This document shows, one piece after another, positions 270 to 54,507 of a DNA stretch of 64,000 nucleotides. The stretch is from Klebsiella phage vB_KpM_FBKp24. Below the pieces are notes generated by a model. That model did no database searches, had not been told where the DNA came from, and saw only the letters and a list, made by a program, of their open reading frames with translations. Every line of letters begins with the position of its first letter. Positions within the stretch are counted from its first letter, which is position 1. The stretch lies in sequence record MW394391.1; one strand, 5' to 3'. The position numbers were made by a program, and so were the translations under genes.

Positions 270-593
270 TTAATTGGATTCGAAGGATGTCTCCGAAAGT
301 GCAATAATTTCTTCCAATCCATCAAGGATCACTCCGGCCGCAATAAGGGTTAGCTCTTCCCCAGATGGTGTTAGGTCACGAACAGAACCCCGCGCTGTTG
401 ATACAGAAATTAGCATCCTTCTCACTTTGGTATTCATTATAAACACTTCGGTTAACGGTAGGTTGTAGAACACCTCTGCGCGCTGAGACAACTGGTAAGC
501 AATTTCATTCTGGGAAATTTCCGTGTTCTTTACAGTGTCAAACCATGCCAGAATATCTTTAGCTGTTTCTACGGTTGTTTTTAAGTCAGCCAT
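270..593 (-). CDS. hypothetical protein (107 aa)
   Basis: ORF track; SD-like gaggaaaag upstream of ATG at 593; same strand as flanking genes. Confidence 0.5.
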   Translation of the reverse strand: MADLKTTVETAKDILAWFDTVKNTEISQNEIAYQLSQRAEVFYNLPLTEVFIMNTKVRRMLISVSTARGSVRDLTPSGEELTLIAAGVILDGLEEIIALSETSFESN

Positions 594-624
594 TTTCTTT
601 TCCTCTAAGTTTAGTTATTCAGAA

Positions 625-690
625 AGGTCTTTCCTTTCCTATTTCACTGTAGCAATATATACATCAAACAAACTGCATTTCGATTTTTAG
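625..690 (+). promoter_or_regulatory. conserved promoter/leader element, copy A (TATATAC box plus ctgcatttcgattttt leader)
   Basis: Near-identical to 22292-22350 and similar to 43726-43793 and 54504-54550; each copy sits directly upstream of a plus-strand gene start. Confidence 0.45.
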
Positions 691-694
691 AAGT

Positions 695-1972
695 TTGTAT
701 GTTAACTGCCCTTTGAAGGAAACTATTGTGGAAATCAAAAACCTTTTTGACGACCGTTTTAAGAATGTCGTCTATGATACTCGCTTTGCCAGAGAAATTG
801 CTGTTTTCACGAAGACCTTCGAGAACAAAGGTGACCATGCAAATTTCTTTGGTAGTGGATTACTCGGTACAGTACGTATCAGATGGACCAACACTGAGAC
901 CAACGGCTTTTTCGACGATATCTTAAAAATAGACCCAGATGATCTCAAAGCCGATATCGACGAACTTGATTGCATTGATCCGTCCCATATCGTCACCACT
1001 GACGCGTTTAACTTGATGATTGTCTATTGCGTGCATCGCGTGATGACAACCGGTAAGTTATCCGCACCGCAACGAAAAGAAGTCGCCATCAATTTATTGA
1101 GAATTCTTCATTTCAAATTTATTTGCGGTATCATTACGCGTTATTTCCCCCACGGCACAGATGTTCAAATCGCCCTACGAACGTACGAAGCCATGACTAA
1201 CCGTTTTGATCTTAAGATCTACAAGACCTGGGGGAAGTTAATTACTGCCCGTGCCCAGTCAATTCTTGAGCCTAACGGTATCCACGCGAAAACTATCCAG
1301 ACTTTCGCTGATGACGACGCAGTCAAGTACATGTTGTCCGATATCCAAACACGTATCCGTACGGTAATTAAGACGTTAACTGCGCTTTATTACCAAGTCA
1401 GGGAAACAGACGGCCGCGTCATTTCGGTTTCTAATATGGTCGAAGTAGAAGGGACAATGGAGATCCGCGATATCAAACGCGCGTTCCCGAAATATCGTCG
1501 CTATCTCTTTGAACAAATGGTTGACCCGGCAAGTTTTATTCGGTTAGAGTTAGTTGATATCCTAACGAAAAACGCCCCGTCGCAGAAAAAAGCTCTGATT
1601 GCCACGCTGCAATATGTCAGTCTTCACGTTATCAACCCGGAAGCGGTTTTCAGCGGGAAAGAACCTAAACAGAGTAAAGAAGCGAAGAAACTGATTGAGT
1701 TCACGGACAGGACGTTAGAGTATACGTTTGATTTTATTCATGGTAAGGGAATTAACCCACGGAACCTGGCGGAGCTGATCGGTAGTATTAAAGCCGTTCT
1801 CAACGCTTCACGAAACAAAGAACCTGAGGTCATGTACTTACGTACAGAGGGTGACAAAATTGTCAGGGCTGCCACTGGGAAACGCGAACCTACCCCTGTT
1901 TCCGCAGAGAGAACGTCTTTCATTTTATACCTCATTCTACGGACGTTGACGATGTCCTACTACCAAAGTTAA
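695..1972 (+). CDS. hypothetical protein (425 aa)
   Basis: ORF track gives a TTG start; alternative GTG at 728 preceded by AAGGA; lies between promoter-like repeat A and a strong terminator. Confidence 0.6.
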   Translation: MYVNCPLKETIVEIKNLFDDRFKNVVYDTRFAREIAVFTKTFENKGDHANFFGSGLLGTVRIRWTNTETNGFFDDILKIDPDDLKADIDELDCIDPSHIVTTDAFNLMIVYCVHRVMTTGKLSAPQRKEVAINLLRILHFKFICGIITRYFPHGTDVQIALRTYEAMTNRFDLKIYKTWGKLITARAQSILEPNGIHAKTIQTFADDDAVKYMLSDIQTRIRTVIKTLTALYYQVRETDGRVISVSNMVEVEGTMEIRDIKRAFPKYRRYLFEQMVDPASFIRLELVDILTKNAPSQKKALIATLQYVSLHVINPEAVFSGKEPKQSKEAKKLIEFTDRTLEYTFDFIHGKGINPRNLAELIGSIKAVLNASRNKEPEVMYLRTEGDKIVRAATGKREPTPVSAERTSFILYLILRTLTMSYYQS

Positions 1973-2010
1973 AACAAAAAAAAAAGAGAGGGCAAACGCC
2001 CTCTCTTTTG
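1973..2010. terminator. rho-independent terminator (A-run, agagagggc/gccctctct stem, T-run), bidirectional
   Basis: Perfect GC-rich hairpin flanked by A10 and T4; identical copy at 22933-22972. Confidence 0.7.
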
Positions 2011-2018
2011 TGCCTTAG

Positions 2019-3065
2019 TTAAAGGCCGATTTGTTTCGCTAAACGACAATAGCCGCGATAGAAGGCATCGATCAGAAGATTCTCCAACAGCGGAATACTG
2101 GGAATACTCTGACCAAAAACGTTATAGTTCCAGGTTACGTGTTTCCGGATAGCACAGGTATTTTCTGGCGTAGGGCCTTTGACCATATAAGCGATGTCCC
2201 CTACACTGGAGGTTAAAACCCAACGATCTTCGTCTTCGCGGTATTCTACATCAGTAATAAAACGGTCTGTTTTAAACTCCGCGTCGCTCAAAGGTCCGCC
2301 GATAATGTCCTCAATAGCGTGCCTCATGTATTTGTCAATCAACGGGATCTTTTGAATGTTCCCGTCGATATGGTACCCGAACCCCTTACCTAAAATGGTC
2401 CCAACGTAGAAACCTTCACAGCTGTCCTTGTCATTAGAGCGGTTGATCAACTTCAGTACCAGGTCAGATGTACTGTCGAAGAACAGCGCTACATTGGGGA
2501 GAAACTGATATTCCCCCCGGCGTTGACAGACAACCTTATGCGCCCATGCCAGCTCAAACTGAGAACGCATATACAAAATGAAATCAGCCCCGAGCTGTCG
2601 CTGCCACGTCCGGCCGTAAAAGTCCCCAACCCACGACGACTTATCGTCGGCCATAGTCCCTGAAGCAACAGGTCGACCGTTCATTAGCAGCGTACGTTGC
2701 ATGACATGAATTTTAAAGCGGCAGTTCAGCATAAAACGAACCCTGGCCTTTTCACCCATGTAATGTTGGAAGGCGTGTTGGATCGCAAGAAGGCTAAACG
2801 GTTTTTCATTTTCCTGAGTAAAATGGTAACGCACGGTGTCGCCATGTAGCGTAACAAACACGAGATGTTTCATCTCGAGCGTTGGGGTATTATCTAGCCG
2901 AATAAGAATATTTTCATTTTTATCGGTGAAGATATAACCGTGTTCATTTTTGTATGCGAAGACCGAATTGTTTTTATCAAGGGGCATTACCCCGTCGTAA
3001 TTAAAATTAGAATCGGTCTTTTTATCGTAAACGCTGGCGTAAACAAAAGTTTCAATAGTGGCCAT
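2019..3065 (-). CDS. hypothetical protein (348 aa)
   Basis: ORF track; immediately downstream of large terminase on same strand. Confidence 0.55.
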   Translation of the reverse strand: MATIETFVYASVYDKKTDSNFNYDGVMPLDKNNSVFAYKNEHGYIFTDKNENILIRLDNTPTLEMKHLVFVTLHGDTVRYHFTQENEKPFSLLAIQHAFQHYMGEKARVRFMLNCRFKIHVMQRTLLMNGRPVASGTMADDKSSWVGDFYGRTWQRQLGADFILYMRSQFELAWAHKVVCQRRGEYQFLPNVALFFDSTSDLVLKLINRSNDKDSCEGFYVGTILGKGFGYHIDGNIQKIPLIDKYMRHAIEDIIGGPLSDAEFKTDRFITDVEYREDEDRWVLTSSVGDIAYMVKGPTPENTCAIRKHVTWNYNVFGQSIPSIPLLENLLIDAFYRGYCRLAKQIGL

Positions 3066-3168
3066 GTTGATCCTCCTTAAGGGTTAGAGAATAAGAGGAA
3101 TGTCAGCAATAACGCCGACATTCCGTATCGATGTTCAATAGGGTGATATATACACCACTATCTTTTGA

Positions 3169-5343
3169 CTACCTATAGTAATTTGTACCCATGTATTTTT
3201 GGAACTCCGCGTGACGATTGGAGTTGATCTCTTCAATCTTCCCGGTGACGTTAATCGGCTCAGCACCTGCCTCTTCCAGACATTCGTTAAGGTAATTCAA
3301 ACGTCTTTCTAGCTTCATAGCACTGATAGGATTATCGGCAGTTTCCATTGCGGTTAAAAGTTTCTCGATCTCCCGATGGAGGAAATCAATCTCTTCTTGT
3401 TGCTCATCAATCTCATTCGCATTCCCCGCCAATACGTCCACCGCTCCGGTCAGTACCCGTCTTGAGTCTAAACCATAATAGTCTAAATTCGCCCCGTAAA
3501 TCAGTAAATAGACGGTCAGAAGATAAGCGATCACGGTGTCATCGTGACCACCTGGCGGATGGTCTATTTTACCGTTCTTTTCAATCAACCCGGTCAATTC
3601 TGCAATCAGGATTTTATCGTGTATCCGAGTAGCACCTTTCAACATTGCAATTTTCAGCACAGTTTCATAAAGCTGTCTGCGCGTGGTAGTGCCTGTACAG
3701 AAACCAAATTTGGTTTTCCGTCGAATGTAAAAGGCGTCGTCACGGCGATTCATGTCTCCTTGGATTTCCATGTAAGAAGCTGTATCTACTGACTTATTAT
3801 CAACGATCGAGTTGTAAATTCGTTTAAACGGGTCGATGCCTTTGCTGTGCAAAATCAAGCACAGGTAGTCGATGAACGTCTGTCCAGTAGATTTCCTTTC
3901 GGGGATAAAGACGGCTTTTGGATAAGAGATCAACAGATCACCTAAGAACTCAGCGTATTTAGGGATCAAAGCTTCATTGATCACTGAAACCCCGATAACG
4001 TCTGCGCTATACGGATCGAGGAAGACCAATGACAACGCATCTCGTCCCCCGCCCTCTGAGGTATCTGCCCCGATAATAAAGGTCATCGTTTTCCGGTGTT
4101 CGTCGATATATTCTTTCGGAACATACCAGTGAACGATGTAGCCGTTACGGAAAATCTCGGAGTAATCAGAATAGCGTTGGGAACCGATGGCTTTCGCCAA
4201 TAATTCTTTGTCGATCGGGTTGTTGGTCCCGGCTGCTGTCCAGATATTAAAGAAGTCTCGGTCTGCTTCTGGTCCACGTGCCATTGCGCGACGCATGTTT
4301 TCGTAGTGCTGCTCATCAGAAACACCAACCTGATTATGACTCCAGGTTCCGTTAATCAAAAGTTTAGCGTCTTTTGACTTAAGGTTGCGCTGCACCACCT
4401 CACGAAGATTAGCCTGCGAACCAGCATCGTAAAAATGGTCAGACCACCGGGCTGCTTCGTTCCACATTTTGAAGACGAAGCGTCCGTCGCGGCTGGTTTG
4501 GTCACCCGCAGTTGTGGTCATGATACTTCCCCACGGCATGTTTCTTGCTTTGGCTTTTTCGATCGCGGCGTTCATACCAGGCATCGCAGCTTTGAACGCA
4601 ATCTCGATATAGTTGATGAAGGGGGTTTCATCCCAGCCTACTGTTGGCGAGGTGTTACCGCGACCGACTTTGTTTGCACCGCCTGGGTCAGAGCGCGAAA
4701 CTGCTACTGCAAACAAATTACCACGAGTGTTGTAAGTGACCTTTTCGTTTGCGATCGTATCGGAGCGGTCAGTTACTGTTAAGTACGGCGGGAGATACTC
4801 ACGAATGCGTCGTATCATGGTGGTGGTTTCGGAACGGAGTTCGTCTGATTTAGTCACCAGTGAAATACGAGCTTTAGTGTACCGCATGTACAACAACCAC
4901 GAGTACAAGCAATAAGAGATAAGTGATTTACCGGTCTGACGGGGCTGTATCAGAAGATAATCGATGTGGTTCATGTACGACCAAATAAGCGACATATTCG
5001 CTCGGTTCGCACGTAACAGATCGCCTTCTTCACCGACGACAGGTGGGACGCGCAAACATTCTCTGAGGTAATACCAAATGTTATATTCGGCCTCTATCTT
5101 AATCGCTATCATCTGATCTTCAGTCAAATTTGGACTGAAAGGGTCAACACCAACCAGATCAGGGTTTAAAAGCGCAAGTGGCCAATGGTGATTTTTGATC
5201 CCCATTTTTTGCAATACCCCGACAAAACGGGTAAACTCTTTGTTTGGCGTATCCCAATCGGGTATAGCGCTGGGATGGTAGTCCCAGTCCTCAAGGTGGA
5301 GTATCGGCCGTGAATCATTTTCCATCGTATTGTGTATCGACAT
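3169..5343 (-). CDS. terL: terminase large subunit (T4 gp17-like ATPase + nuclease)
   Basis: Walker A-like QPRQTGKS (cf. T4 gp17 SRQLGKT); DE Walker B (GWDETPF); C-terminal RNaseH-like nuclease motif IIGADTSEGGGRDALSLV (cf. gp17 GVDISKGRGQDYS); 724 aa. Confidence 0.85.
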   Translation of the reverse strand: MSIHNTMENDSRPILHLEDWDYHPSAIPDWDTPNKEFTRFVGVLQKMGIKNHHWPLALLNPDLVGVDPFSPNLTEDQMIAIKIEAEYNIWYYLRECLRVPPVVGEEGDLLRANRANMSLIWSYMNHIDYLLIQPRQTGKSLISYCLYSWLLYMRYTKARISLVTKSDELRSETTTMIRRIREYLPPYLTVTDRSDTIANEKVTYNTRGNLFAVAVSRSDPGGANKVGRGNTSPTVGWDETPFINYIEIAFKAAMPGMNAAIEKAKARNMPWGSIMTTTAGDQTSRDGRFVFKMWNEAARWSDHFYDAGSQANLREVVQRNLKSKDAKLLINGTWSHNQVGVSDEQHYENMRRAMARGPEADRDFFNIWTAAGTNNPIDKELLAKAIGSQRYSDYSEIFRNGYIVHWYVPKEYIDEHRKTMTFIIGADTSEGGGRDALSLVFLDPYSADVIGVSVINEALIPKYAEFLGDLLISYPKAVFIPERKSTGQTFIDYLCLILHSKGIDPFKRIYNSIVDNKSVDTASYMEIQGDMNRRDDAFYIRRKTKFGFCTGTTTRRQLYETVLKIAMLKGATRIHDKILIAELTGLIEKNGKIDHPPGGHDDTVIAYLLTVYLLIYGANLDYYGLDSRRVLTGAVDVLAGNANEIDEQQEEIDFLHREIEKLLTAMETADNPISAMKLERRLNYLNECLEEAGAEPINVTGKIEEINSNRHAEFQKYMGTNYYR

Positions 5344-5431
5344 GAGGGACTCCCTCTACTGTAAATATTATCATAGAGAAAGTATAGGGCACAGAGAGGA
5401 GGGTTTCCCTCCTCTCTGTGTGCAAAACGAC

Positions 5432-7141
5432 TTATGATAAGGTATGACGAATAATCATCCCAGCAGTAGCCAGTTGTAGGTCTACGCCGTTCACCGTACG
5501 TACCCAGTGGAGCAATGCCAATTTCCCAACAGTACCGCCTGTCGCGATCGTGAACGTGGTATTCCACGCAGAAATCGGTTGACGGACACGAATGTTGTCT
5601 ACCTGGAGGATAAAGTGCGTAGGTACCAGCGGTTCGCTTTCGGTTTCGGTATCGTACAACGGATGTAGCCGGTAGTACAATCGATCAAGCCATTCGCTTT
5701 GCGTTTGTGCACCCATACTCATATCCGTCGACCAAACCTGAGACGAGATATACTTCAAACGGCACTCAAGTGATCCGCCGTAGTCCTCGTCACCTATTTC
5801 GAAGTTGACAAACCAAGGCGATTCGACACCGCTCTCACCGTCAGCCATTAACGTAATGTCGTTTTTCTGAACATGACGATAACTACTAAAAGAACTGGAC
5901 ACTTTTGAAATATCCAGTGCAAAGGCCATGTGTTGTTTGGTGTTATAGAGCGTCGGATCCCAGACCGCCGACCCAGGTGCCGCTTCGAGAAGATCCGTTA
6001 CTTCGTACATCGCTAAACGATCGAGGCTTTGCATGAAATGACGAAGTTTGTAACCGTTACCGTTACTCTGCCATTCTGGGAACATAAAGAGTTTCACCGA
6101 ATAAGCATTTGGGAGCGTCACTGATTCAATGGTATACGCTACGGGAATAGTGCCCGAGGCAGTGGCCGTACCCTGATAACTTTCGGTACTGTCCAGCTGA
6201 TAAAACAGTGTCAGTGGACTGGTCTGCCCAGATTGAGTCGGGATGAACTCGCTCAAACCGGAAAGATAGATTTTACTACCATCGACCGGTTTGATCACTG
6301 AACTACCGTCGGTATAAGTCACCCTTACGCTAACATCAATCGATGTCATCAACAGATTAACAGGTACGTTGAGACGGTTCGGGTCGGTGGCACTTAAATA
6401 ACTACTGACCAGTGCAACAGAATCGATAGATCGTTTTGCCGAGTTAGATTGACGAATAATTCCTGAATCTACCACGGTCATGGTAAAGCGACTCGTCGGG
6501 AGCCCTGCCGCATCGTAGAAGATAACAAGAACGATTTCGCCGTTCTCAATTTTTCTCGTCGCATTAGCCGTAACGGGAATGCGGTAGTTACCCGTCGTGT
6601 CACCCTCAATGGTCATCAACGGGATTTCGTCACTCTCCAGTTGACCAGATTGGTTGTAGTACGCGGACAACACTTCCAGGTTACCGGTAGTGGATGTGTT
6701 AGAGAACACACGAACCTTTGTCGCGGTCGGCTGATAGGCTCTCAATAAGCTGTCGAAAGCCATCTCTGGCGGAGAGACAGTGTTATCAACGTAAACAAAG
6801 AACCCAGGTTGCGGGTAACGACTCCCGACCCCTAAAAGAATATCGATGGAGTTATCGATAGTCGTAGGGACGTTGTACGCGATCCAGGTCGATAACAGTG
6901 TTGACGTATCCACTTCAGTAACGATATAAAACCCAGAATTTTTATCGAAGATACGATCCCCTACTTTAGGGACGAATCGTCCGATGTTCCCCGAACCTAT
7001 TCCGGCGGGACCGACATAAATTTCAGAGCGCGCCCACTCTTTGTACAACCCGTTCGGGTTCCAGATAGGTACATCAGCTGGCGTATCGTCCGTTAACACC
7101 AGCGCGTATTGTACTCCACTTGTAGTGGTCGATGTGGCCAT
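5432..7141 (-). CDS. hypothetical protein, possible virion structural protein (569 aa)
   Basis: ORF track; Thr/Ser/Val-rich, beta-type composition; 1-bp spacing from upstream 852-aa gene. Confidence 0.5.
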   Translation of the reverse strand: MATSTTTSGVQYALVLTDDTPADVPIWNPNGLYKEWARSEIYVGPAGIGSGNIGRFVPKVGDRIFDKNSGFYIVTEVDTSTLLSTWIAYNVPTTIDNSIDILLGVGSRYPQPGFFVYVDNTVSPPEMAFDSLLRAYQPTATKVRVFSNTSTTGNLEVLSAYYNQSGQLESDEIPLMTIEGDTTGNYRIPVTANATRKIENGEIVLVIFYDAAGLPTSRFTMTVVDSGIIRQSNSAKRSIDSVALVSSYLSATDPNRLNVPVNLLMTSIDVSVRVTYTDGSSVIKPVDGSKIYLSGLSEFIPTQSGQTSPLTLFYQLDSTESYQGTATASGTIPVAYTIESVTLPNAYSVKLFMFPEWQSNGNGYKLRHFMQSLDRLAMYEVTDLLEAAPGSAVWDPTLYNTKQHMAFALDISKVSSSFSSYRHVQKNDITLMADGESGVESPWFVNFEIGDEDYGGSLECRLKYISSQVWSTDMSMGAQTQSEWLDRLYYRLHPLYDTETESEPLVPTHFILQVDNIRVRQPISAWNTTFTIATGGTVGKLALLHWVRTVNGVDLQLATAGMIIRHTLS

Positions 7142-10648: not shown

Positions 10649-10811
10649 TACTTAATTCTCCAATTATGGCCATACCCTACAGAATGTTAATATGACGACT
10701 TACCCTATTTACCCGTAAACTATGGTTTACAAATCCCCAAGCTTGGGACTAGCGTCACTATGACTGTACATAATTTATGCGGTACCTACTCTTTTTAAGA
10801 GGCAAAAAGAC

Positions 10812-22230: not shown

Positions 22231-22291
22231 ACTTTCCTCTTAGACCTCTTAGGTCAGTAAATGGATGTTTAGTTATCAGAAAAGCGTTATA

Positions 22292-22350
22292 TCTTTCCTA
22301 TTTCACTGTAGCAATATATACATCAAAAAAACTGCATTTCGATTCTTAAG
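22292..22350 (+). promoter_or_regulatory. conserved promoter/leader element, copy B
   Basis: tctttcctatttcactgtagcaatatatacatcaaaaaaactgcatttcgattctt, near-identical to copy A. Confidence 0.45.
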
Positions 22351-22388
22351 AGTTTTTATGACCCCTTCTACAACACAGGCTCTCTACG

Positions 22389-22928
22389 ATGAAAAAACTC
22401 ACTATTTGGGGACTCCCTGTCCCTTTACTCGGTTTTCTTCACTGGTTCGTTTTTCTATTGATTTATTTCTTTGCGTTAATTATTTGTGTTTTTGTCACCC
22501 CGTTCCTTCCTATTTTCGCAACTAAGGAAGGTAGACTCCCTACGTGGTTAGCCTGGTTTGATACCCCAGATAACACCCTTGATGGGGATTCAGGCTGGAA
22601 AGAGAAGCATTCGCTTTGGGTAAAATTTTTACCGGATTGGGCCGAGACTTATGTGGCCCGAGTATTCTGGTTATACCGTAACCCTCTTTATGGTTTCTCG
22701 ATCAGCGTTCTAGGGGCCCCTAAGGATAAACACCTCCAGCCGGTTCTGGACGGTAAAGGCTTTGACGTAAAAGGGACGTATAAGTCGCATTACTGGATGG
22801 TTTATTTCATGCGGGATGATCATGTCAAGAAACGCCGTTTTAAAGTGTATATCGGATGGAAACTCAAAGCGGAAGGATTTGATAAATATCAGTTCGCTTT
22901 TTTGATTAACCCTTTCCAAACGCCGTAA
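22389..22928 (+). CDS. membrane protein (179 aa)
   Basis: N-terminal TM helices; flanked by promoter repeat B and a terminator identical to the one at 1973-2010. Confidence 0.6.
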   Translation: MKKLTIWGLPVPLLGFLHWFVFLLIYFFALIICVFVTPFLPIFATKEGRLPTWLAWFDTPDNTLDGDSGWKEKHSLWVKFLPDWAETYVARVFWLYRNPLYGFSISVLGAPKDKHLQPVLDGKGFDVKGTYKSHYWMVYFMRDDHVKKRRFKVYIGWKLKAEGFDKYQFAFLINPFQTP

Positions 22929-22932
22929 TTGA

Positions 22933-22972
22933 AACAAAAAAAAAAGAGAGGGCAAACGCCCTCTCTTTTTAT
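22933..22972. terminator. rho-independent terminator identical to 1973-2010
   Basis: aaaaaaaaaagagagggcaaacgccctctcttttt. Confidence 0.7.
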
Positions 22973-23409
22973 ATTCTTTTTAAAGAATCGATTTCCAGCG
23001 CCACTTCAAATTCGTAAAGCATTCGCCCGAAGAAGGTCGCAATCGTGAGCAAGCCGAGGAGGTATTCGTGATGTACCATCAACAGAATCGTAAAAGCTAG
23101 TGCAACGATGATTCGCTGACAAACATTCATTCCGCCTACAAAGGTAATGTGTTTTTCTGCCTTTTCAACGATCACTTGGCGCATCGCAGGCGTCAGGACG
23201 GCGCGTGTTATATCGGGCAATGAAACGTATTGATAAAGCACCCAACCTAAACGACCGAGAATGAGTGCTACTGCCCATAGACGAACCAAATCAAAGGCTG
23301 TTTCGTTTTGCTTAAAACACAATACAGCGAGTACCACGCAAGAGAGCAGCGAGCAAATTTTAGAGGTGAGGGTAGAGAGGTAGAACATCTTTGTATTCCT
23401 TTTCTTCAT
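22969..23409 (-). CDS. membrane protein (146 aa)
   Basis: Multiple hydrophobic helices. Confidence 0.55.
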   Translation of the reverse strand: MKKRNTKMFYLSTLTSKICSLLSCVVLAVLCFKQNETAFDLVRLWAVALILGRLGWVLYQYVSLPDITRAVLTPAMRQVIVEKAEKHITFVGGMNVCQRIIVALAFTILLMVHHEYLLGLLTIATFFGRMLYEFEVALEIDSLKRI

Positions 23410-23459
23410 GAATTGTCATAGTTGTCAGGGAACGGTTGTTCCCTGACAATGGACGGAGA

Positions 23460-23960
23460 TTAGTTACAGGTCAGAACGAGCTTCCCTTGGATATGGGTCA
23501 CGCCAAATGGCATCTGCTGAGCGTCCAGGTTGATCTTCGGAGCCAGCGCCAGCGTTTTGGTGTTACCTGCGATATTCTGCGCTTGTGCAGCATCAGTCCA
23601 CGCGTATTCCACATTGTTAACGAACACGGAAGTTTGATCGCGGTTGCTCACCGTCATCAGGTTATCGGCAAAGTCGAAGCGACCAGTGTTCTGGGTCAGT
23701 TTCGCTTCAGTGAGGCGCCAGTTTTTCTGGGCCGTGTTGCTGGTCAGCACGAAGTTGATCGCCTTACTGTTATTAGTACCGGTTTCGCCTTTCAACAGGA
23801 TACCGCCGACTTGAACACCGTTCGCGTAATCGATACCGCAGGAGATTTGAGTTTGGTTGTATTCTGCGTCCCAGACCAGTTCATTGGCAGCAAAAGCCGA
23901 AGAGGTCAGTGCCAGAGCGATTACGGAAACAGCGATTTTGATAGATTTCATTTGATACAA
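23460..23960 (-). CDS. secreted protein with signal peptide, host-like codon usage (166 aa)
   Basis: MKSIKIAVSVIALALTSSAFA signal peptide; two Cys (41, 165); locally GC-rich, E. coli-type codons unlike neighbours. Confidence 0.6.
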   Translation of the reverse strand: MYQMKSIKIAVSVIALALTSSAFAANELVWDAEYNQTQISCGIDYANGVQVGGILLKGETGTNNSKAINFVLTSNTAQKNWRLTEAKLTQNTGRFDFADNLMTVSNRDQTSVFVNNVEYAWTDAAQAQNIAGNTKTLALAPKINLDAQQMPFGVTHIQGKLVLTCN

Positions 23961-24011
23961 TTCCTATTTGAATAAAGAAAGGTTTTAGTTAAAAACGACG
24001 AGAATTTACTA

Positions 24012-24455
24012 CTATGGATCAACTTGCATGGCGCGTTGAGAATCCATTTGTTGATTCTTTTCCATGCGATCCATTTCCATCTCCAAACGTTTAATTTGGA
24101 GTTCTTTCTGACGGCGACTCAAATCAGCGAGTCTTTCACATGACTCTGCCATTTTATCGTCGCCCCCGAGAGGGATACTGATGCTAACGTAACCGCCTTT
24201 ATCGTCATTAGCATAACGATACTCGCTGCCGTTATTTCCGTACGCACCAACGTTGATTGTCGCCTGAGGACGGCTAACCTCACAGCTAATATCACCGTTT
24301 TGAATACGGCCGCGGTTTTCTGCGATGTTGTTGGTGATATAGGGAGCATCAGCAAAGGCGGTGCCAGCTGCTACCAATGTTACAATGAACAAGAGAATTT
24401 TATTCGAGATCGACATTGAAACATGCCTCTGGCTGAATTTCCGATTGAGGGACAA
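24012..24455 (-). CDS. secreted protein with C-terminal coiled coil (likely starts at internal Met ~24416)
   Basis: MSISNKILLFIVTLVAAGTAFA signal peptide; C-terminal RRQKELQIKRLEMEMDRMEKNQQ. Confidence 0.5.
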   Translation of the reverse strand: MSLNRKFSQRHVSMSISNKILLFIVTLVAAGTAFADAPYITNNIAENRGRIQNGDISCEVSRPQATINVGAYGNNGSEYRYANDDKGGYVSISIPLGGDDKMAESCERLADLSRRQKELQIKRLEMEMDRMEKNQQMDSQRAMQVDP

Positions 24456-24771
24456 CCTGCATGGCGCAGATCATTACGTATTTTTTACCGTTACTTCTCT
24501 CCCGAATAAATTTATTATTGACTTTGATAGGGAAGGTTGCCCTTTCTCCACCGAAGACATATTTTTTATACGGAACGCCGTTTTTATCGGCGATTTTTTT
24601 ATCTTCGACGCGAAATACAAAATCAGAAGATTCTTTCGAATCAACAAACATCTCAACAACTGTATAGTTGTCGTATCCGATCGGTGTTACCCGCTGCACC
24701 GGGCCGAAATAAAATGCCATGGCATTAACAGAGAACAGCGACAAAAGAGTAAGTAGTAATAAGCGTTTCAT
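24400..24771 (-). CDS. secreted protein with signal peptide (123 aa)
   Basis: MKRLLLLTLLSLFSVNAMA signal peptide. Confidence 0.55.
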   Translation of the reverse strand: MKRLLLLTLLSLFSVNAMAFYFGPVQRVTPIGYDNYTVVEMFVDSKESSDFVFRVEDKKIADKNGVPYKKYVFGGERATFPIKVNNKFIRERSNGKKYVMICAMQVVPQSEIQPEACFNVDLE

Positions 24772-24838
24772 TCAATTTCTCGGTGAAAGAAAAATAATAG
24801 AGGGAGTGAAGGGTATTAATACCCTTCACTGTATAATC

Positions 24839-25255
24839 TTATTTGCAATGACGGCGCGGTTGATGGTTAAAGTTATTCTTCAAACGCTCCAGTGAACTTT
24901 TAGATGCCGGCGGTTCGGTGACTTTAGTGTTGTTGATAGATACAACATTTTGCTTTCCAGTGCACGGCCAAATTTCAAGAATTAATTCGGCTGTATCGTC
25001 TTTTTCCAGACCACCATAAACTTCGGAAAGAAGGTAGTAATCTGAAAATGCCGCTGCGTCTAAAATCAGATCAGAGATCTTAGAACCCGCGACAGGGTAA
25101 AGTTGACTAACAACTAATTCCCCGTCCAGTAAATATTCTGCTAAGGTAATTTTGGGAGTGGAATAAACCGCTTTTACTTTAATATCCTTAACGGAAAATT
25201 TACTTGAGGTGATTGCCTTCTGAATGTTTTCAATGGTTTTTTTAGCTAATAACAT
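24839..25255 (-). CDS. hypothetical protein (138 aa)
   Basis: ORF track. Confidence 0.5.
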   Translation of the reverse strand: MLLAKKTIENIQKAITSSKFSVKDIKVKAVYSTPKITLAEYLLDGELVVSQLYPVAGSKISDLILDAAAFSDYYLLSEVYGGLEKDDTAELILEIWPCTGKQNVVSINNTKVTEPPASKSSLERLKNNFNHQPRRHCK

Positions 25256-25349
25256 GTGAAACTCCTTTTTAAATGGTTTAGTTTGGTTTCGTGAAAAGGT
25301 TTTATTATTCCTTGTTCACCTTAGAAATATATATGTTAAAAAAATTGGA

Positions 25350-25392
25350 AATCAAAAAAAAAGAAAGAGAGAGGAAACCCTCTCTCTTTCTT
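25350..25392 (-). terminator. rho-independent terminator (gaaagagagagg/cctctctctttc)
   Basis: 12-bp stem followed on minus strand by T9. Confidence 0.6.
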
Positions 25393-25396
25393 ACCT

Positions 25397-25684
25397 TTAC
25401 TCGGTTTCTTTCAAACCGAGTAAAATATCGGCTTTTTCTCGCGCTACTTTCTCTGAATGGGTGAGGCCATGACCTTGACGCTGATGTCCGCACATCCAAC
25501 AACTGCAATTACAAGGAGTGGTCGCAACCCGCCCGATAATACCTTTATCGGTTTGAGGTTTCATGTTGAGAAAATAAACGTTTGCGTTCCAGTAGTGAGA
25601 AACTTTCTTTTTCTTCACTACTTTTTTGAACCGACGATAAGCGCGATCGCGTTGTGCCATAATTCCGATTCCTCTTAATTTCAC
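25397..25684 (-). CDS. small Cys-rich putative zinc-binding protein
   Basis: CNCSCWMCGH cluster plus His pair; basic N-terminus; probable start MAQRDRAY (25660). Confidence 0.45.
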   Translation of the reverse strand: MKLRGIGIMAQRDRAYRRFKKVVKKKKVSHYWNANVYFLNMKPQTDKGIIGRVATTPCNCSCWMCGHQRQGHGLTHSEKVAREKADILLGLKETE

Positions 25685-28494: not shown

Positions 28495-28560
28495 GTGCCA
28501 CCTTAATAGATTGGGTTACATTAGAGTGATATAGTCTTCAAATAAATTCCGTTCACCGTA

Positions 28561-37607: not shown

Positions 37608-37737
37608 GGACGATTAAATCGAGTAAATCAGACATAGTGTTTTAAAGCTCCATTGTTGTTAGTTGGACTAATTCCAATAGAGTGATATAGGTGTCAAATT
37701 AATTGGATTCCTCGTTAAAAGAGATGGCAAGTTTCCT

Positions 37738-40416
37738 ATGACTTTTGACCTATGTGATAAGGTAAATGAAATGAGTGATTTCGGGAATAAGATCAGCGAA
37801 TTAAATCCGTTGAGCGCAGGAAATATGGCGGGGGAAATTCCGTTAAGTTTAACACTGTCTAGCGGTACTTTGGCAACCAATAAAATCACGTTGAGCCAAC
37901 TCAGAGATCTTTTTGACTTCGATAGCGCATACAGCAGCGTAGAAGAAGGGATCGCTGCGACGGTAGAAAACCAAATGTTCTACGTTTACGTAGACAATAA
38001 TAAATTATCGGTCAATGAATACATCCGAACTAGCATTGGTGCGAACGCAGTCATCGGTAAAAGCGGCACTAAGAAAATTATTTATATTCCTGAACTACTG
38101 AAGCACGTCAAAGTGCAAGTAGAGAGTTTTACTGCACTGCGGGAGTTTAAACCGTGGTGGGAAGGTCAGGTAGTTTATCTGAAAGGGTACTACTCGGAGA
38201 GTACATCGGGGAGTGGTGACTTCATTGGTCATTTAGGAACAGCAACGGATGACGGCGGTGTCATCGCAGCGGGGTCGGGGTATTACTGGGAACGAAATGA
38301 CAGTAAGAATGTTATAGATGCTCAATGGTTTGGCGTTACAGCCGATGGCACCAATAAAGGGACTGAAATTAGTCGTGCACTCGATTTCATCTCTGTTCGT
38401 GGTGGGGAATTAAAATTCCCTAATGGCGAAATAAACTGGGGTACGCTCAGGAAAGTTTTTAACTATTCCGCCACTTTGAAACCGTTCACTTTATCAGGTA
38501 ACGGAGACAGCACCGTTTTTACGTTTGACGACGTCCCGCCCCCTACGCTACAAACTGGCGCTAATTGGGTTAAAGAATCACCGTTAATATCTTTTATCGG
38601 AACTAGCGGCGACAAATTCATTCCGAAGGTAGCCCTGAAGAATTTCTCTATGGACTATTCGCGACAGAAGAATAAAGGCGGGACGGATTTAACTACGCTC
38701 TCTGTGACACATCCTACTCCATATTCACTCGGGGTCTGGGGAATTTATTTCTTCTATGCCGATAGTCCGACGATTGAAAACGTGACCCTAAACAATATTT
38801 ACGGTGATGGGGTCATCATTAGGAAGTCATTCGAGCCGACAGTAAGAAACTGTCAGTTTTATAATGTTTCCGCTGGGAATATTATTGCGAGAACCGATGG
38901 TAACATGGCATCGGATTCGAACGGTGGGGCTATTTTCTTTTGGGCTTGCGTTGGTGGTCTTATCGATAATGTAACTGCTTGGAACCAACGGACTTATCAA
39001 GTTCATGTTAACTCAACCGATAACGGTACGGACGTATTTAACACATTGTGCGGTTACATTGGTATCTGGACAGAGTACCCGTGGGATCAAAACATGACAG
39101 CTAGTTCGCCAGAGACCGCACCGCCAAGAATGACTTCTATAATTTCATCAAGTAATTTGACAAACAATTGGGACAACGAAGCCAAGGGATGTACTATTCG
39201 AAATTGTACTGTTTATGGATATACTATCGGGATTAAATCGGAAGGATTTAGCGAAACCAATATTGTCAACAATATGGTTCTTAATTGCTACCTTCCTATT
39301 TTCCCGGCCAGTACTCGTGCAACTGTAGCCGATAATTTTACAGATATGCTCTACTGCGACAACCGGACTTGTCCGCAAGGTGGTTATCAAAGTATCCGTG
39401 GTCATCTTGTCTGCCATAACTACAGTACCGTCGATGACGGTGCGCGCAGAGGCGTTGAGTTCAGAGGTAATAAGTGCTATTGCGTATCGTACCCTGCTTT
39501 TAGGAGTAACCGGTCAGGATCGCTCTTCGTCGGCAATATGTTCAGGTTCGCACGTGGCGCGGCTGTTGCGATCGATACGACTATTAGTACTCTTGTTAAA
39601 GGCGTCATTGTTAGAGATAACACGTTTTTCTTTGATAGTACAATCAGCAGTACCGTGACTTCTAATATTTCTTATCATGACGGGCTTGTATTCAGTGGCA
39701 ACCGATTTGTCAATAAGTCGACCTCGTTAGTTACGATCGCATTTAGAAATAATTCAAAGAATGTTAAAATAGAAAATAACTTCTTTGAGGGTTGGTTTTT
39801 TGTAGCGTTACAGTGTACGGGTATTTTCGATAAGAACACTGTAGATGTTCAAAATCAACCGATTGCTAACAGTTATCATTTAGGTAATGTTTTTCAGGCC
39901 ACGGCGAGGGCGGTAATATCAAGGAATGAATTCAGAATTAACTCTTCTGCGACTAGTTCGCAAATTGTAGTTTCTTCAGATAATAGCGTATTTGAACGTA
40001 ATATTATACATGTACAAAATACGGGAACACCGACCTTGAATGGTTTAGTTTCATCTGAGTCCAGCGGAGCAAACCAAATTTTTGAAGGTAATTTGGTTAC
40101 GCAGAACCCGTTTAATACCGCCCTGTTCTACTTGAATACCCCGCACGCACCAACGTTTATCGGAAATGTCAATAGCGGTAATCTGATTTATATTTTCGGC
40201 ACCACTATTTATTCTCCTATAACTCTCGAACGTAACAGATGCACAGGGATATTTACTGCCCTAGCAACAGAAAAAAATACAGGTGTCAATCTTTCGTCTA
40301 AAGTGACGCCCTATGTTGGAATGAAGATGTATTACATTCTCCCTAATGCTAATGGAGCAGAAGGGGAAATATATACTGCGCAAGGATGGAAAACATTTGG
40401 TAGTATTACTGCTTAA
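37738..40416 (+). CDS. tailspike / depolymerase-like protein with right-handed beta-helix (pectate-lyase-3-type) domain
   Basis: QWFGVTADGTNKGTEISRALDFI matches the FGAKGDGxTDDT start of pectate_lyase_3 domains; N-terminal region paralogous to 57978-59960 (FIGHLGTATDDGGVIAAGSGYYW vs FIGVLGTKADDGGVVASGSGFYW); likely true start ATG 37771 (MSDFGNK) with aagg SD. Confidence 0.8.
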   Translation: MTFDLCDKVNEMSDFGNKISELNPLSAGNMAGEIPLSLTLSSGTLATNKITLSQLRDLFDFDSAYSSVEEGIAATVENQMFYVYVDNNKLSVNEYIRTSIGANAVIGKSGTKKIIYIPELLKHVKVQVESFTALREFKPWWEGQVVYLKGYYSESTSGSGDFIGHLGTATDDGGVIAAGSGYYWERNDSKNVIDAQWFGVTADGTNKGTEISRALDFISVRGGELKFPNGEINWGTLRKVFNYSATLKPFTLSGNGDSTVFTFDDVPPPTLQTGANWVKESPLISFIGTSGDKFIPKVALKNFSMDYSRQKNKGGTDLTTLSVTHPTPYSLGVWGIYFFYADSPTIENVTLNNIYGDGVIIRKSFEPTVRNCQFYNVSAGNIIARTDGNMASDSNGGAIFFWACVGGLIDNVTAWNQRTYQVHVNSTDNGTDVFNTLCGYIGIWTEYPWDQNMTASSPETAPPRMTSIISSSNLTNNWDNEAKGCTIRNCTVYGYTIGIKSEGFSETNIVNNMVLNCYLPIFPASTRATVADNFTDMLYCDNRTCPQGGYQSIRGHLVCHNYSTVDDGARRGVEFRGNKCYCVSYPAFRSNRSGSLFVGNMFRFARGAAVAIDTTISTLVKGVIVRDNTFFFDSTISSTVTSNISYHDGLVFSGNRFVNKSTSLVTIAFRNNSKNVKIENNFFEGWFFVALQCTGIFDKNTVDVQNQPIANSYHLGNVFQATARAVISRNEFRINSSATSSQIVVSSDNSVFERNIIHVQNTGTPTLNGLVSSESSGANQIFEGNLVTQNPFNTALFYLNTPHAPTFIGNVNSGNLIYIFGTTIYSPITLERNRCTGIFTALATEKNTGVNLSSKVTPYVGMKMYYILPNANGAEGEIYTAQGWKTFGSITA

Positions 40417-40417
40417 A

Positions 40418-40458
40418 ATAAATAAAGGGTGGGCCATTTGGCCCACCCTTTATTTTCT
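40418..40458. terminator. bidirectional rho-independent terminator (aaagggtgggcc/ggcccaccctt)
   Basis: 12-bp GC stem, A/T runs on both sides. Confidence 0.7.
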
Positions 40459-43224: not shown

Positions 43225-43692
43225 TTATTTGGCGAGAATAGATTTACCTTTATATTCCAACATCAGCCCAGCTAAACCGATCCGTGTTTCCGCTTCCGTT
43301 ACCATTGCCTCTAAAGCAGACATCAGAGTCCGTTCTTTCGCTTTCAAGAATACCGGCTCGAAACCATCCGAGAATACATTATCGAGACTGATGCGTACCC
43401 AAACTTCACCGGTATCTTTCATGGCCACTTCCATTTCCCCGAAATCTTCACAGCGGTTCGGCGCCAAGTCTTTAAGAAACAGAATTGTTTTTCCGCACTC
43501 GTCTCCGACGATCCAGTTACTTTCGTCGAAATTCGTTAATTCTTCAAGGAGTTCGCCGGCATGATAAACAATGATAGCGTTAATACTTTCACGCATTTCA
43601 GTCACTGAGTCAGCGAATTTCTTTTCGCGTTCTTCACGAGTGTAGTTCAGAGAAGAGAAGACATTAGCAACAGCATCTTTGATCAGAGACAT
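43225..43692 (-). CDS. hypothetical protein (155 aa)
   Basis: ORF track. Confidence 0.5.
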   Translation of the reverse strand: MSLIKDAVANVFSSLNYTREEREKKFADSVTEMRESINAIIVYHAGELLEELTNFDESNWIVGDECGKTILFLKDLAPNRCEDFGEMEVAMKDTGEVWVRISLDNVFSDGFEPVFLKAKERTLMSALEAMVTEAETRIGLAGLMLEYKGKSILAK

Positions 43693-43725
43693 GTTAGGAT
43701 TCCTTAATTGGTTTAGTTAAACGGA

Positions 43726-43793
43726 AAGGTCTTTCCTTTCCTTATTCACTCTGGCTATATATACTTTAAAAAAAGTGCATTTCGATTCTTATG
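43726..43793 (+). promoter_or_regulatory. conserved promoter/leader element, copy C
   Basis: aaaggtctttcctttcc...ctggctatatatactttaaaaaaagtgcatttcgattctt shares 5-prime block, TATATAC box and tgcatttcgattctt leader with copies A and B. Confidence 0.45.
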
Positions 43794-43827: not shown

Positions 43828-45288
43828 ATGGACGTAATTATCGATGGTAAACGTTATATCCCGGAAGAACACGCTTCCCGTAAAATCGGTATCGCGATCT
43901 CCACGCGTAATCGACACGACGTACTAAAGAAAACCCTCGCTGAGCACGCCAAGTTCCTCCCCCCTAATGCGGTAATCTATATTGTCGATGATGGTTCGGA
44001 TACCCCGGTACAAGCTCCTGATTGGGCCGCTGTTCATCGTCATGAAAAAAGTGAAGGGATAGTAGCCGTTAAGAATACATCGCTTCGCCTTTTGATTGAC
44101 GCCGGCTGCGAGCATTTGTATCTGTGGGACGACGACGCCTACCCGATTGCTGATAACTGGTGGGTTCCGTATATGTTGTCACCAGAACCCCATCTCGGAT
44201 ATCAGTTTAAAGACCTAGCGGGAAAAAGAAAAATAAATGACGTTATTGAAGTGTATAATGACGGGAAACATTTTGCACTTTCAGGGCAGCGTGGAGTTAT
44301 GCTCTATTACCACAAATCGGCGATTGATAAAGTCGGTGGTTTCGATCCAATTTATCAACGAGGGATGTATGAGCACGTCGACCTTGCCCTGCGTATTCAT
44401 AACGCAGGTTTAACCACATTCCCGTTTGGTGACGTCGTCGGAAGTAACCGACTTATCCATTCCATGGACGAATACGAAGAGGTTGCGCGGTCTGTTCCGC
44501 CAGCGGATCGTCAACAGCAGGTGGAAAGAAACGTTAAGATTTATACGGCGCGCCGTAAGAGCCAGTACGCCGGTTATGCGCCTTATCGCAAAGCCCGTCG
44601 GGTAGTCGCCACCGCGCTATTAACCGCTTGTACTGACCCACAACGTCAGAATACTCACATGGCAGCAAGTAGTGCTCTACTACAGACGTGGGCAGAGAGT
44701 ATTAAAGGTGCAGAGAAGATTGTTTTTGCAGATCAGCTATCCGATATGTCTGGTGTGACAATAATCAAAGTACCAGAGGTAAGAAATCTTTCCCCGTATT
44801 TTCTCCGCTGGCTGCACATTTACCAGTGGCTGCGTGATAACCCAGATGTTACCCAAATATGGTGTACAGACGGCACCGATGTCAAAATGCTCAAAGAACC
44901 TTGGGATGAAATGGAACCGGGGAAAGTTTATGTCGGAAATGAACATACGACATACGCCAACCCTTGGTTTGACAAAGTCAATTACCAGAAGTATTTGAAA
45001 AACTTTATTACCGCCAACAAAAATGAACAGGTGGTCAACGCAGGGTTAATCGGCGGTTCCAGAGAAGACGTTATGCAACTGGCTCACGGAATGATTGCCC
45101 AAGTGTGGAAAATGAAATCCGAGATCTTCTGGCGAGAAGAACTCGCCCCTGAGTCAGTGACGGACATGGTTATGTTCGGTATCGAAGCGAAGAAGTTTGG
45201 CGATCGATTAGTGCACGGCCCTATTGTCAACACCGTTTTTAAAGGTAACGAACACGGTAAAGATATCGCTTGGTTTGCGCATAAATGA
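43828..45288 (+). CDS. two-domain glycosyltransferase (N-terminal GT2 family GT-A fold + C-terminal nucleotide-sugar transferase-like domain)
   Basis: GT2 signatures IAISTRNRHDVL...IYIVDDGSD, DxD YLWDDDAY, and C-motif DKVGGFDPIY..GMYEHVDLALRIHNAGL; second half has WCTDGTDV DxD-like motif; host-like GC-rich codon usage. Confidence 0.8.
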   Translation: MDVIIDGKRYIPEEHASRKIGIAISTRNRHDVLKKTLAEHAKFLPPNAVIYIVDDGSDTPVQAPDWAAVHRHEKSEGIVAVKNTSLRLLIDAGCEHLYLWDDDAYPIADNWWVPYMLSPEPHLGYQFKDLAGKRKINDVIEVYNDGKHFALSGQRGVMLYYHKSAIDKVGGFDPIYQRGMYEHVDLALRIHNAGLTTFPFGDVVGSNRLIHSMDEYEEVARSVPPADRQQQVERNVKIYTARRKSQYAGYAPYRKARRVVATALLTACTDPQRQNTHMAASSALLQTWAESIKGAEKIVFADQLSDMSGVTIIKVPEVRNLSPYFLRWLHIYQWLRDNPDVTQIWCTDGTDVKMLKEPWDEMEPGKVYVGNEHTTYANPWFDKVNYQKYLKNFITANKNEQVVNAGLIGGSREDVMQLAHGMIAQVWKMKSEIFWREELAPESVTDMVMFGIEAKKFGDRLVHGPIVNTVFKGNEHGKDIAWFAHK

Positions 45289-45306
45289 TCTTAGGAGGGG
45301 TTAAGA

Positions 45307-45897
45307 ATGAAAATTGCGGTCGTTGGCCACGTTTCAAGACTCTCTGCGATCGAAAGACTTGTTTCGGCTCTTCCGTGCGAAGTCTTTATGGACAGTGTAG
45401 GGAAAGGGGCTTTACACAATCACCTGAGGGCATTACGTTGGGCGGCAGAACAAAATGAGCGTGTAGTGATCATGGAAGATGACGCCATCCCCGTTACGTC
45501 TTTTATTGAAAAAGCAGAGAAATGGTTTTCGCTATTTCCCGATCAATTTCTTTCTTTTTATTTGGGGACGAGCCGTCCACCTCAATACCAGAAGTTAATC
45601 GATCATTCCATAGAAGACTCCAAAAAGCTCAACCGTCAATTCATTTGGTTGAACCAGTTGATTCACGGTGTCTGTTACTCCCCAGTTCCCGGGACAATTC
45701 AAGATATCGTTGATAAAATCGATATGAATAAACCAGCGGACTTCGCTATAGGTTCTGCTTGGGGTAAATCTGTCTATTACCCTATCAGGTCACTTGTAGA
45801 GCACCGTGACGGTAGATCGGTAGAGAAACACACCGATGGCAGGAAAAAATCTGGTGTGCGAGTAGCGCGCTTCCTAGACGGTAATTTACAGTACTAA
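45307..45897 (+). CDS. glycosyltransferase, GT25-like (LPS/LOS glycosyltransferase family)
   Basis: Pattern HL(x)A...A......VVIMEDDAIPV typical of glycosyltransferase family 25 N-terminal region; SD aggagggg; co-transcribed with upstream GT. Confidence 0.55.
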   Translation: MKIAVVGHVSRLSAIERLVSALPCEVFMDSVGKGALHNHLRALRWAAEQNERVVIMEDDAIPVTSFIEKAEKWFSLFPDQFLSFYLGTSRPPQYQKLIDHSIEDSKKLNRQFIWLNQLIHGVCYSPVPGTIQDIVDKIDMNKPADFAIGSAWGKSVYYPIRSLVEHRDGRSVEKHTDGRKKSGVRVARFLDGNLQY

Positions 45898-54081: not shown

Positions 54082-54507
54082 TTATTTAACCAACGTTTGA
54101 AGAGACGCAATGATTGCTTTTATTTCTTCATTATCGAAGACAATGTAGGTTGCCTTTTCTTCGTAGAAACCATCGCGGGTGGTACATTCTAAATCCATCG
54201 GGATATTAGAAGAGATACCATTTACCCGAGTCTCTTTCTGTGCACGCTCGTCGATGTCCATCAACGTTTCCGATGAGTCTGCATCAATATCGACGAGCGC
54301 TTTGTACACGAAATCATTTGTCATGGATTCGTATTTAATGTTCAATGAGTGGATAGCCGGCTCTAACAACGCTTCCTGATACGCGGGGCCAAAAATAAAC
54401 AGCGTTCCCGAAGGTAATTTGAGGAATTCTTCTTTGTTGTAAAGCTTCATTTGATTTCTCCTATAAAAGACAACGTAAATTAGAATCGAATTTGATTCAT
54501 CTGTCAA
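54082..54507 (-). CDS. hypothetical protein (likely starts at internal MKLYNKEEF, 54447)
   Basis: ORF track. Confidence 0.45.
   Translation of the reverse strand: MTDESNSILIYVVFYRRNQMKLYNKEEFLKLPSGTLFIFGPAYQEALLEPAIHSLNIKYESMTNDFVYKALVDIDADSSETLMDIDERAQKETRVNGISSNIPMDLECTTRDGFYEEKATYIVFDNEEIKAIIASLQTLVK

Follow-up and report, generated by a model that had tools for sequence, protein, structure and literature searches.

A repeated element in Klebsiella phage vB_KpM_FBKp24 is probably a phiKZ-type early promoter serving minus-strand genes

Genes and repeats around the plus-strand units

Plus-strand transcription units interrupt the mostly minus-strand gene order of Klebsiella phage vB_KpM_FBKp24 in the 64,000-nt stretch of record MW394391.1 that we analysed ("the window"), and three of them are preceded by copies of one repeated intergenic element (copies A, B and C). 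Our results indicate that this element is very probably an early promoter of the phiKZ type, read by the virion RNA polymerase and directed at the minus-strand genes on its left.

Copy A (643–679) separates a minus-strand gene for a 107-amino-acid protein (270–593), for which Pfam and PHROG searches gave no match, from plus-strand gene A (728–1972, GTG start at 728 in a frame open from a TTG at 695), whose 414-amino-acid product is the core chimallivirus protein phrog_2921. Gene A and the convergent minus-strand gene 2019–3065 share an intrinsic terminator at 1982–2009, with a 12-bp stem that has ten A before it and four T after it on the plus strand. Copy B (22302–22338) stands in front of gene B (22389–22928), an accessory gene for a 179-amino-acid DUF7338 protein (Pfam, 3.4e-43), behind which lies a bidirectional intrinsic terminator (22941–22970, both strands) with a core identical to that of gene A and an orthologous copy kept in the related phage KpZh_1. 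Copy C (43745–43781) precedes a plus-strand pair (43828–45897) of a glycosyltransferase (43828–45288) and a glucosyltransferase (45307–45897), assigned to PHROG 1579 and 854. A fourth copy, D (54511–54547), has no plus-strand gene next to it; it follows the hairpin at 54551–54576 that ends the NAMPT gene and lies in front of minus-strand gene 54082–54453.

A first-pass annotation of this DNA had described a promoter/leader element in three to four copies, identical terminators and self-contained, moron-like plus-strand cassettes. The repeats and the identical terminators of A and B are indeed found at the coordinates given. Block TGCATTTCGATT is found without mismatch at 674, 22333 and 43776 (four matches with at most one mismatch, 0.59 expected in the window), and GCAATATATACATCAAA at 652 and 22311, with two further matches at 43754 (three mismatches) and 54520 (two mismatches), four in all against 0.28 expected. 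AAAGGTCTTTCCTTTCC is exact at 623 and 43725, and the terminator 25-mer AAGAGAGGGCAAACGCCCTCTCTTT at 1984–2008 and 22944–22968, where none is expected by chance.

Over bases 570–6000 the window shares 98.4% identity with Klebsiella phage vB_KpM_Centimanus (299,730 bp), and about ten further Klebsiella or "Serratia" phages of ∼300 kb each, KpZh_1 among them, are around 78% identical to the window. Because the near-identical Centimanus is annotated with a nuclear shell protein (chimallin), the tubulin PhuZ and seven split "RNA polymerase beta subunit" genes (virion and non-virion enzymes taken together), the source phage is, judged by its sequence, a phiKZ-like nucleus-forming jumbo phage (chimallivirus) of ∼300 kb. 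In phages of this type a virion-borne polymerase transcribes the early genes and a second, non-virion polymerase those that follow, and the host enzyme is not needed (PMC7598289, PMC8244752). In every jumbo phage with RNA polymerase genes of its own, the early operons are preceded by a conserved AT-rich motif, ∼10 nt long and centred near –10 (PMC7598289), and the early promoters of phiKZ and 201phi2-1 are conserved at –10, –20 and –30 (PMC11512511). Those of phiKZ are credited to Ceyssens 2014 (as cited in PMC8244752 and PMC10914365); the nuclear shell gene of phiKZ is among the genes with an early promoter (PMC8244752). For promoters of this type a start ∼7–10 nt past the box is expected, with transcripts made within minutes that depend neither on the host polymerase nor on newly made protein. 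Late promoters of phiKZ are defined by T(–3)ATG(+1), with no upstream element known (PMC7598289).

A one-stranded motif family and its phiKZ counterpart

Inspection of every TATATAC in the window and in Centimanus revealed a wider motif, ...TCAATAGrGTGATATA..., present on the plus strand only. A 37-nt matrix built from it (plus-strand consensus TTCAnTaaAGTGATATAGaCnTnAAAnanaTTGGAnA) finds nine sites in the window, 27 in Centimanus and 28 in KpZh_1, all on the plus strand and none on the other, compared with 0–2 hits in shuffled genomes. The window sites start at 643 (A), 3134, 22302 (B), 25315, 28517, 37673, 43745 (C), 54511 (D) and 63489 and score 29–41 bits, while the next-best match reaches 5 bits; KpZh_1 has an equivalent of each of the nine in the same order. 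Copies A, B and C, at 33–37 bits, are ordinary members of this family. The four copies noted at first are thus real, but the count fell short of the family by five (3134, 25315, 28517, 37673 and 63489).

The position of the sites points to the minus strand. In Centimanus, 26 of the 27 have a minus-strand gene starting 21–139 nt to their left, while a plus-strand gene follows on the right in only seven, and the best site (45 bits) is 65 nt upstream of the nuclear shell gene. Strong hairpins occur no more than 70 nt to the right of 12 of the 27 sites and to the left of only three, which gives the minus-strand order terminator, promoter, gene; counting hairpins whose stem is 7 bp or longer, 12 of 27 sites in Centimanus and 11 of 28 in KpZh_1 have one no more than 70 nt upstream (an example from the window is 25352–25400). 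Copies A, B and C do stand before plus-strand units, yet the element is not confined to such places: the family is genome-wide, and most of its members have no plus-strand gene beside them. Plus-strand units at 10812, 30744 and 57978 have no copy, and the unit at 37738 has a generic one at 37673.

Read on the minus strand the motif is TTTnAnGtC-TATATCAC-TnnAnTG, or in its fuller form TTTnAnGtC-TATATCAC-TttAnTG-AA, and it matches the phiKZ early promoter TTTGAGATC-TATATTAC-TAAnnTG in both sequence and spacing. A full-text literature search for the phiKZ consensus TATATTAC returned unrelated papers only, and the phiKZ genome was read directly instead. In the 42 kb read, TATATTAC occurs eight times on the gene strand and not once on the other, one of the eight being 80 nt before chimallin; its context is aaaaaaaTTTgAGATcTATATTACtaannTG, with the same spacing of TTT, C, box, T and TG as in the window. 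When a matrix built from six phiKZ sites only was used for a cross-scan, eight of the nine window sites were among its top 12 hits and the top five hits in Centimanus were all family sites, always in minus orientation. We also scanned A, B and C for sigma-70 promoters and found none on the plus strand; a weak minus-strand match, TCGAAA-18-TATATT (9/12), is present in A and B, and the counts are not above those of shuffles.

The individual sites agree with this picture. On the minus strand copies A and B read TTTGATGTA-TATATTGC-TACAGTG-AA, and copy A, over 643–679, AATGCAGTTTGTTTGATG-TATATTGC-TACAGTG-AA. Copy A scores 35.6 bits with the family matrix and 14.0 bits with the phiKZ matrix on the minus strand, copy B 37.4 and 12.5 bits (its KpZh_1 ortholog is at 82157), copy D 38.1 and 15.9 bits, and copy C 33.2 bits with the family matrix. 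The site at 25315–25351 (34.4 bits), which resembles A, B and C and may be called E, is the best phiKZ-matrix hit of the window (18.1 bits); it has a minus-strand gene on either side and immediately follows a terminator hairpin. The generic members are those at 3134–3170 (29.4 bits, between the terminase gene and gene 2019–3065), 28517–28553 (39.0 bits), 37673–37709 (40.7 bits, in the divergent region beside the plus-strand gene at 37738) and 63489–63525 (32.3 bits), all predicted to act on the minus strand. At the last of these the transcript would start within a strong stem-loop (fold z –2.6): the early transcript predicted from 63489 (63389–63491, minus strand) opens with an 8-bp stem-loop spanning the start site. 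Several other early sites also open with hairpins, possibly as a 5′ protection.

In the arrangement we propose, each promoter would consist, on the minus strand, of a –30 box (TTCCAA, TTCGAA or ATGCA), TTT at about –20, C-TATAT(C/T)(A/G)C at about –10, six bases and a G at which transcription starts. As in phiKZ, the multisubunit RNA polymerase of the virion would recognise the element, which would fire leftward into gene 270–593, the gene starting near 22231, 43225–43692 and 54082–54453. For copy A the predicted start is the G at ∼645, ahead of the minus-strand gene start at 593. The pieces of the repeat seen first find their places accordingly on the other strand: the "TATATAC box" is complementary to a stretch that overlaps the –10-like box and adjoins it on the upstream side, "TGCAT" has the position of the –30 box (D has ATGCATA there), "TTCGATT" lies further upstream at ∼–38 to –44, and TGCATTTCGATT falls within the –30/–40 region. 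The first-pass annotation was right that the repeat is of a promoter-plus-leader type, but it had the strand and the target genes wrong; TGCATTTCGATT, which it took for a leader or RNA operator near the plus-strand start, sits upstream of the promoter at about –30 to –40, and the leader is the block on the left.

Minus orientation is favoured because gene arrangement, the site at the shell gene, the order of terminators, the comparison with phiKZ and the cross-scan all agree. Membership of the family, strand, position and likeness to phiKZ can be read directly from the genomes, while the polymerase, the timing and the exact start sites are carried over from phiKZ and remain presumptive.

Several observations speak against this interpretation. 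No transcriptome for this phage or its clade was found in the literature, and start sites, timing and polymerase are assigned by analogy. In A, B and C the –30 region departs from the generic box, and there is an extra conserved TCGAAA at 18-nt spacing, ∼9/12 to sigma-70. The AT-rich core is nearly palindromic, and some bidirectional activity may result. At the divergent Centimanus sites 35498 and 139837 the TGGAGA box is at the same time the plus-strand gene's ribosome-binding site, and the 27th Centimanus site, 253914, overlaps the end of a small plus-strand open reading frame. The four-base TATG, considered below as a late start, is not enriched overall (53 observed, 57 expected). It should be added that the small Centimanus reading frame (253588–253926) encodes a Cys-rich protein of 112 amino acids and lies between the early promoter at 253914 and the next minus-strand gene, so that an early transcript would run antisense through it.

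Leaders, late starts, terminators and mosaic boundaries

A subfamily can be recognised in copies A, B and C together with the site at 25315: their predicted transcripts have the first ∼40 nt in common, a small stem-loop followed by AACTAAAC beside the ribosome-binding site, and this holds in three genomes. In the minus-strand mRNA as predicted, the AAAGGTCTTTCCTTTCC block would fold into a stem-loop of 7 bp between +7 and +25. In the leader from promoter A (594–645) the stem-loop is at 621–639, followed by AACTAAAC (609–616 on the plus strand) and the ribosome-binding site AGAGGAAAAG, with a fold of –7.1 kcal/mol (z –1.4); the leader from promoter B (22232–22304) has a stem-loop and AACTAAAC (22267–22274 on the plus strand) with –14.4 kcal/mol (z –1.9), and that from promoter C (43693–43747) a stem-loop and AACTAAAC at 43711–43718 on the plus strand. 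The stem-loops are only modestly more stable than those of shuffled sequences (z –1.1 to –1.9), and their structure is suggestive; a scan of the whole window against Rfam at the gathering threshold gave no match. The site at 25315 has the subfamily features without any adjoining plus-strand gene, which argues that these features belong to minus-strand transcripts, and we predict that the minus-strand mRNA has the left block AAAGGTCTTTCCTTTCC in its 5′ leader. The motif AACTAAAC (GTTTAGTT on the plus strand), located at 609–616, 22267–22274, 25276–25283 and 43711–43718, is 9–23 nt before the start codon and just upstream of the ribosome-binding site in each case. It is also seen at several promoter-less gene starts in Centimanus and KpZh_1.

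One may speculate that the shared transcribed leader of the subfamily and its additional TCGAAA block upstream are the signature of a separate immediate-early regulon, controlled post-transcriptionally in its own way or preferred by a particular polymerase, and that the module also acts as a recombination docking site at which late genes on the opposite strand and new early genes are captured; we rate this as improbable. If true, such a docking-site module would be the jumbo-phage counterpart of the PeSLs of T4, in which a terminator stem-loop is followed by an early promoter.

The plus-strand genes are probably served by other signals. A TATG is found 27–35 nt before the start codons of A, B and C, at positions conserved in KpZh_1: for gene A at 698–701, 27 nt before the GTG, a candidate start for the non-virion polymerase of the phiKZ late type; for gene B within TATGAC at 22357–22362, 29 nt before the ATG; and for the C pair at 43790–43793. 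TATGAC accounts for 16 of the 53 TATG hexamers upstream of genes. It is over-represented ahead of structural genes and gene B, mostly at 25–45 nt from the start codon, in front of genes for tail fibres, head proteins, sheath and PhuZ, and it is a candidate late-promoter start motif that would extend the TATG of phiKZ. It is found at 10759–10764 and 22357–22362 in the window, and in Centimanus upstream of 989, 3289, 5998, 61584–62426, 82923–84464, 86870–88324, 185541 and 288483–292424. Most likely, by analogy with phiKZ, the plus-strand genes are transcribed later by the non-virion polymerase from TATG or TATGAC starts of their own. They stand back-to-back with the early promoters; seen on the minus strand, each comes after the terminator that closes one unit and ahead of the early promoter that opens another.

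As to the nature of these genes, homologs of gene A (phrog_2921) are present in 289 phiKZ-like genomes with hosts including Pseudomonas, Erwinia, Salmonella, Vibrio and others, so gene A is a core chimallivirus gene and not a moron; its phiKZ ortholog is not annotated within the first 9 kb of phiKZ. Gene B belongs to a family (DUF7338) that is carried chiefly by T4-like phages and Felixounavirus and is infrequent among jumbo phages, and the DNA of the C pair is 67–70% identical to glycosyltransferase genes of lambdoid phages. Over ∼870 nt of 43828–45288 this identity is to the temperate lambdoid phages HK542, mEp390 and ENT39118, which hints at gene flow between temperate and jumbo phages. No composition anomaly was detected in A, B or either gene of the C pair, whose GC content and GC at third codon positions (GC3) are within one standard deviation of window genes. 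A moron origin judged by composition was rejected on these values, and the moron-like label does not suit gene A; for B and C, the description as accessory genes bracketed by promoter and terminator signals stands.

Hairpins with an AGAGG/CCTCT stem form another family, with 36 members in Centimanus against 2.35 expected from shuffles and seven in the window (1987, 5395, 18810, 22947, 25370, 28569 and 35681), the terminators of A and B included. In a terminator scan the gene A hairpin passes on the minus strand only and the gene B hairpin on both; a hairpin also follows C. The hairpins at the ends of the units are real intrinsic terminators, as first proposed. The long T-run of the shared terminator is on the minus strand, and the hairpins would chiefly end minus-strand genes 2019–3065 and 22969–23409, although they may work both ways. 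The core of the B terminator is identical in KpZh_1 and the A terminator has a different loop there, which suggests that A was converted to the B form in this lineage.

Some promoters lie at the edges of diverged segments. An island of 3.1 kb (22267–25352) is 90.7% identical to KpZh_1, compared with 66–77% or unalignable sequence around it, and ends in the promoters B and 25315, which suggests recent exchange between lineages; differences from Centimanus begin at 43700–43706 and at 54483, beside promoters C and D. Genome-wide, an alignment boundary was present within 100 nt of 33% of promoters and 25% of control intergenic regions (P = 0.48); an enrichment of mosaic breakpoints at promoters as in T4 PeSLs was thus not significant, and we do not claim such a role. 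Concerted evolution of the paralogs was considered and dropped, paralog and ortholog identities being alike (72–81%) and the signal not clear. Relative to Centimanus, 57847–59960, 38168–40450, 1–462 and the junction 43700–43706 are replaced: the plus-strand gene for 660 amino acids at 57978–59960 is absent there, the second half of a plus-strand gene for 892 amino acids differs, as does the gene downstream of promoter A, and in Centimanus promoter C is followed at once by an additional gene of 0.7 kb. Outside the window, an eight-tRNA cluster of Centimanus includes an annotated tRNA with anticodon TTA ("tRNA-Stop", 121400–121483), possibly an ochre suppressor.

Alternative explanations and known systems

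The arrangement that suggested autonomous moron-like cassettes, with a plus-directed promoter and a TGCATTTCGATT leader driving the plus-strand genes, has several points in its favour. A plus-strand gene begins 49–90 nt beyond each of copies A, B and C, genes B and C are accessory, with the glycosyltransferases in the PHROG class "moron, auxiliary metabolic gene and host takeover", cassette B (22267–23043) is kept as a unit in relatives with a different left flank, and single-gene units on the opposite strand of phiKZ have been discussed as moron-like (PMC10914365). Yet the plus-strand gene is missing at 20 of 27 Centimanus sites and five of nine in the window, D and 25315 included, no copies turned to serve plus-strand operons elsewhere were found, the phiKZ matrix matches the minus orientation only, A, B and C lack a sigma-70-like promoter on the plus strand, locus C of KpZh_1 has a generic box in place of TGCATTTCGATT, and neither the core status of gene A nor the composition of the plus-strand genes is that of morons. 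The statistics of strand and position, together with the phiKZ cross-scan and the scan for sigma-70 promoters, led us to reject a plus-directed promoter, and we regard the cassette model as very improbable. Still less credible are host promoters read by the bacterial sigma-70 polymerase: the 9/12 match on the minus strand of A and B is what they have to offer, but generic family members have only 13–14 nt between the upstream box and TATATC, such matches are no more frequent than in shuffles, and phiKZ-type phages transcribe without the host polymerase (PMC7598289, PMC8244752).

A two-way region, in which the leftward early promoter is joined by blocks of A, B and C (TTCGATT...TTA...TATG) that act as a plus-directed middle or late promoter or as an operator co-regulating the three plus-strand units, deserves more attention, and we hold it possible, if doubtful. 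A and B are alike over the whole intergenic stretch up to TATG in both the window and KpZh_1, TATG precedes all three plus-strand starts at 27–35 nt with TATGAC being the motif of structural genes, and back-to-back promoters are known in AR9 (PMC5312081). The distance from TTCGATT to TATG, however, is 12 nt in A and B and 2 nt in C, locus C of KpZh_1 has no TTCGATT, phiKZ late promoters have no known upstream element (PMC7598289), and the likeness may reflect common descent or gene conversion of the whole spacer. Conversion, as the source of the A–B identity, also figures in the idea that the composites of terminator and promoter are, as in T4 PeSLs, chiefly homology anchors for gene swapping. 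Terminator hairpins do abut many promoters, the island at 22267–25352 and the Centimanus differences at 43700–43706 and 54483 border promoters, and the A and B terminators are the same in this lineage, not in KpZh_1; but breakpoints are no nearer to promoters than to other intergenic regions, by the genome-wide comparison above, and paralogs are about as similar as orthologs, with no clear excess. This seems to us unlikely as the chief role of the repeats.

Taken as phiKZ-type early promoters, the repeats do not reveal a new kind of system. The class is known; the early-promoter consensus of this clade was not described previously as far as our literature search showed. It gives a usable consensus for the Klebsiella/Serratia clade of nucleus-forming jumbo phages, some of which are in therapy development, and allows nine likely early transcription units in the window, together with TATGAC as a candidate late start motif, to be mapped from sequence alone.

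The closest counterpart is phiKZ itself, where an AT-rich motif of single orientation likewise stands genome-wide before early operons, that of the shell gene included, with the core TATAT(T/C)AC, TTTnAnnnC before it and T-N4-TG after it at equal spacing. The box here is mostly TATATCAC, with TATATTGC or TATATAGC in A, B and C, and the –30 region has TTCCAA, TTCGAA or ATGCA in place of the A-run of phiKZ. The core is conserved between Pseudomonas and enterobacterial chimalliviruses, hence the specificity of the virion polymerase looks ancient. AR9 has a comparable AT-rich box, six bases and a G at +1 (early consensus AAATATATATTAT-(6N)-G) and divergent intergenic regions with an early promoter one way and a late promoter the other (PMC5312081), but its DNA contains uracil, its consensus is AAATATATATTAT, and its late motif is AACA-N6-TA/G rather than TATG.

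The PeSLs of T4 show the same order of terminator stem-loop and early promoter, repeated over small variable early genes, and some mosaic boundaries coincide with them (PMC2839356, PMC4122927). They are read by the host sigma-70 polymerase, however, in A and B a gene in reverse orientation separates terminator from promoter, and a role in recombination lacks statistical support here. With phage morons (PMC10914365), B and C have in common that they are accessory, lie on the opposite strand and are enclosed by transcription signals, but the conserved promoter faces away from the plus-strand gene, gene A is core and composition is normal. Finally, phiKZ and 201phi2-1 also have terminator families in which many terminators per genome share a stem motif and some are bidirectional (PMC10914365, PMC11512511), the stem being AGAGG/CCTCT here and of the CCCC/GGGG type in phiKZ.

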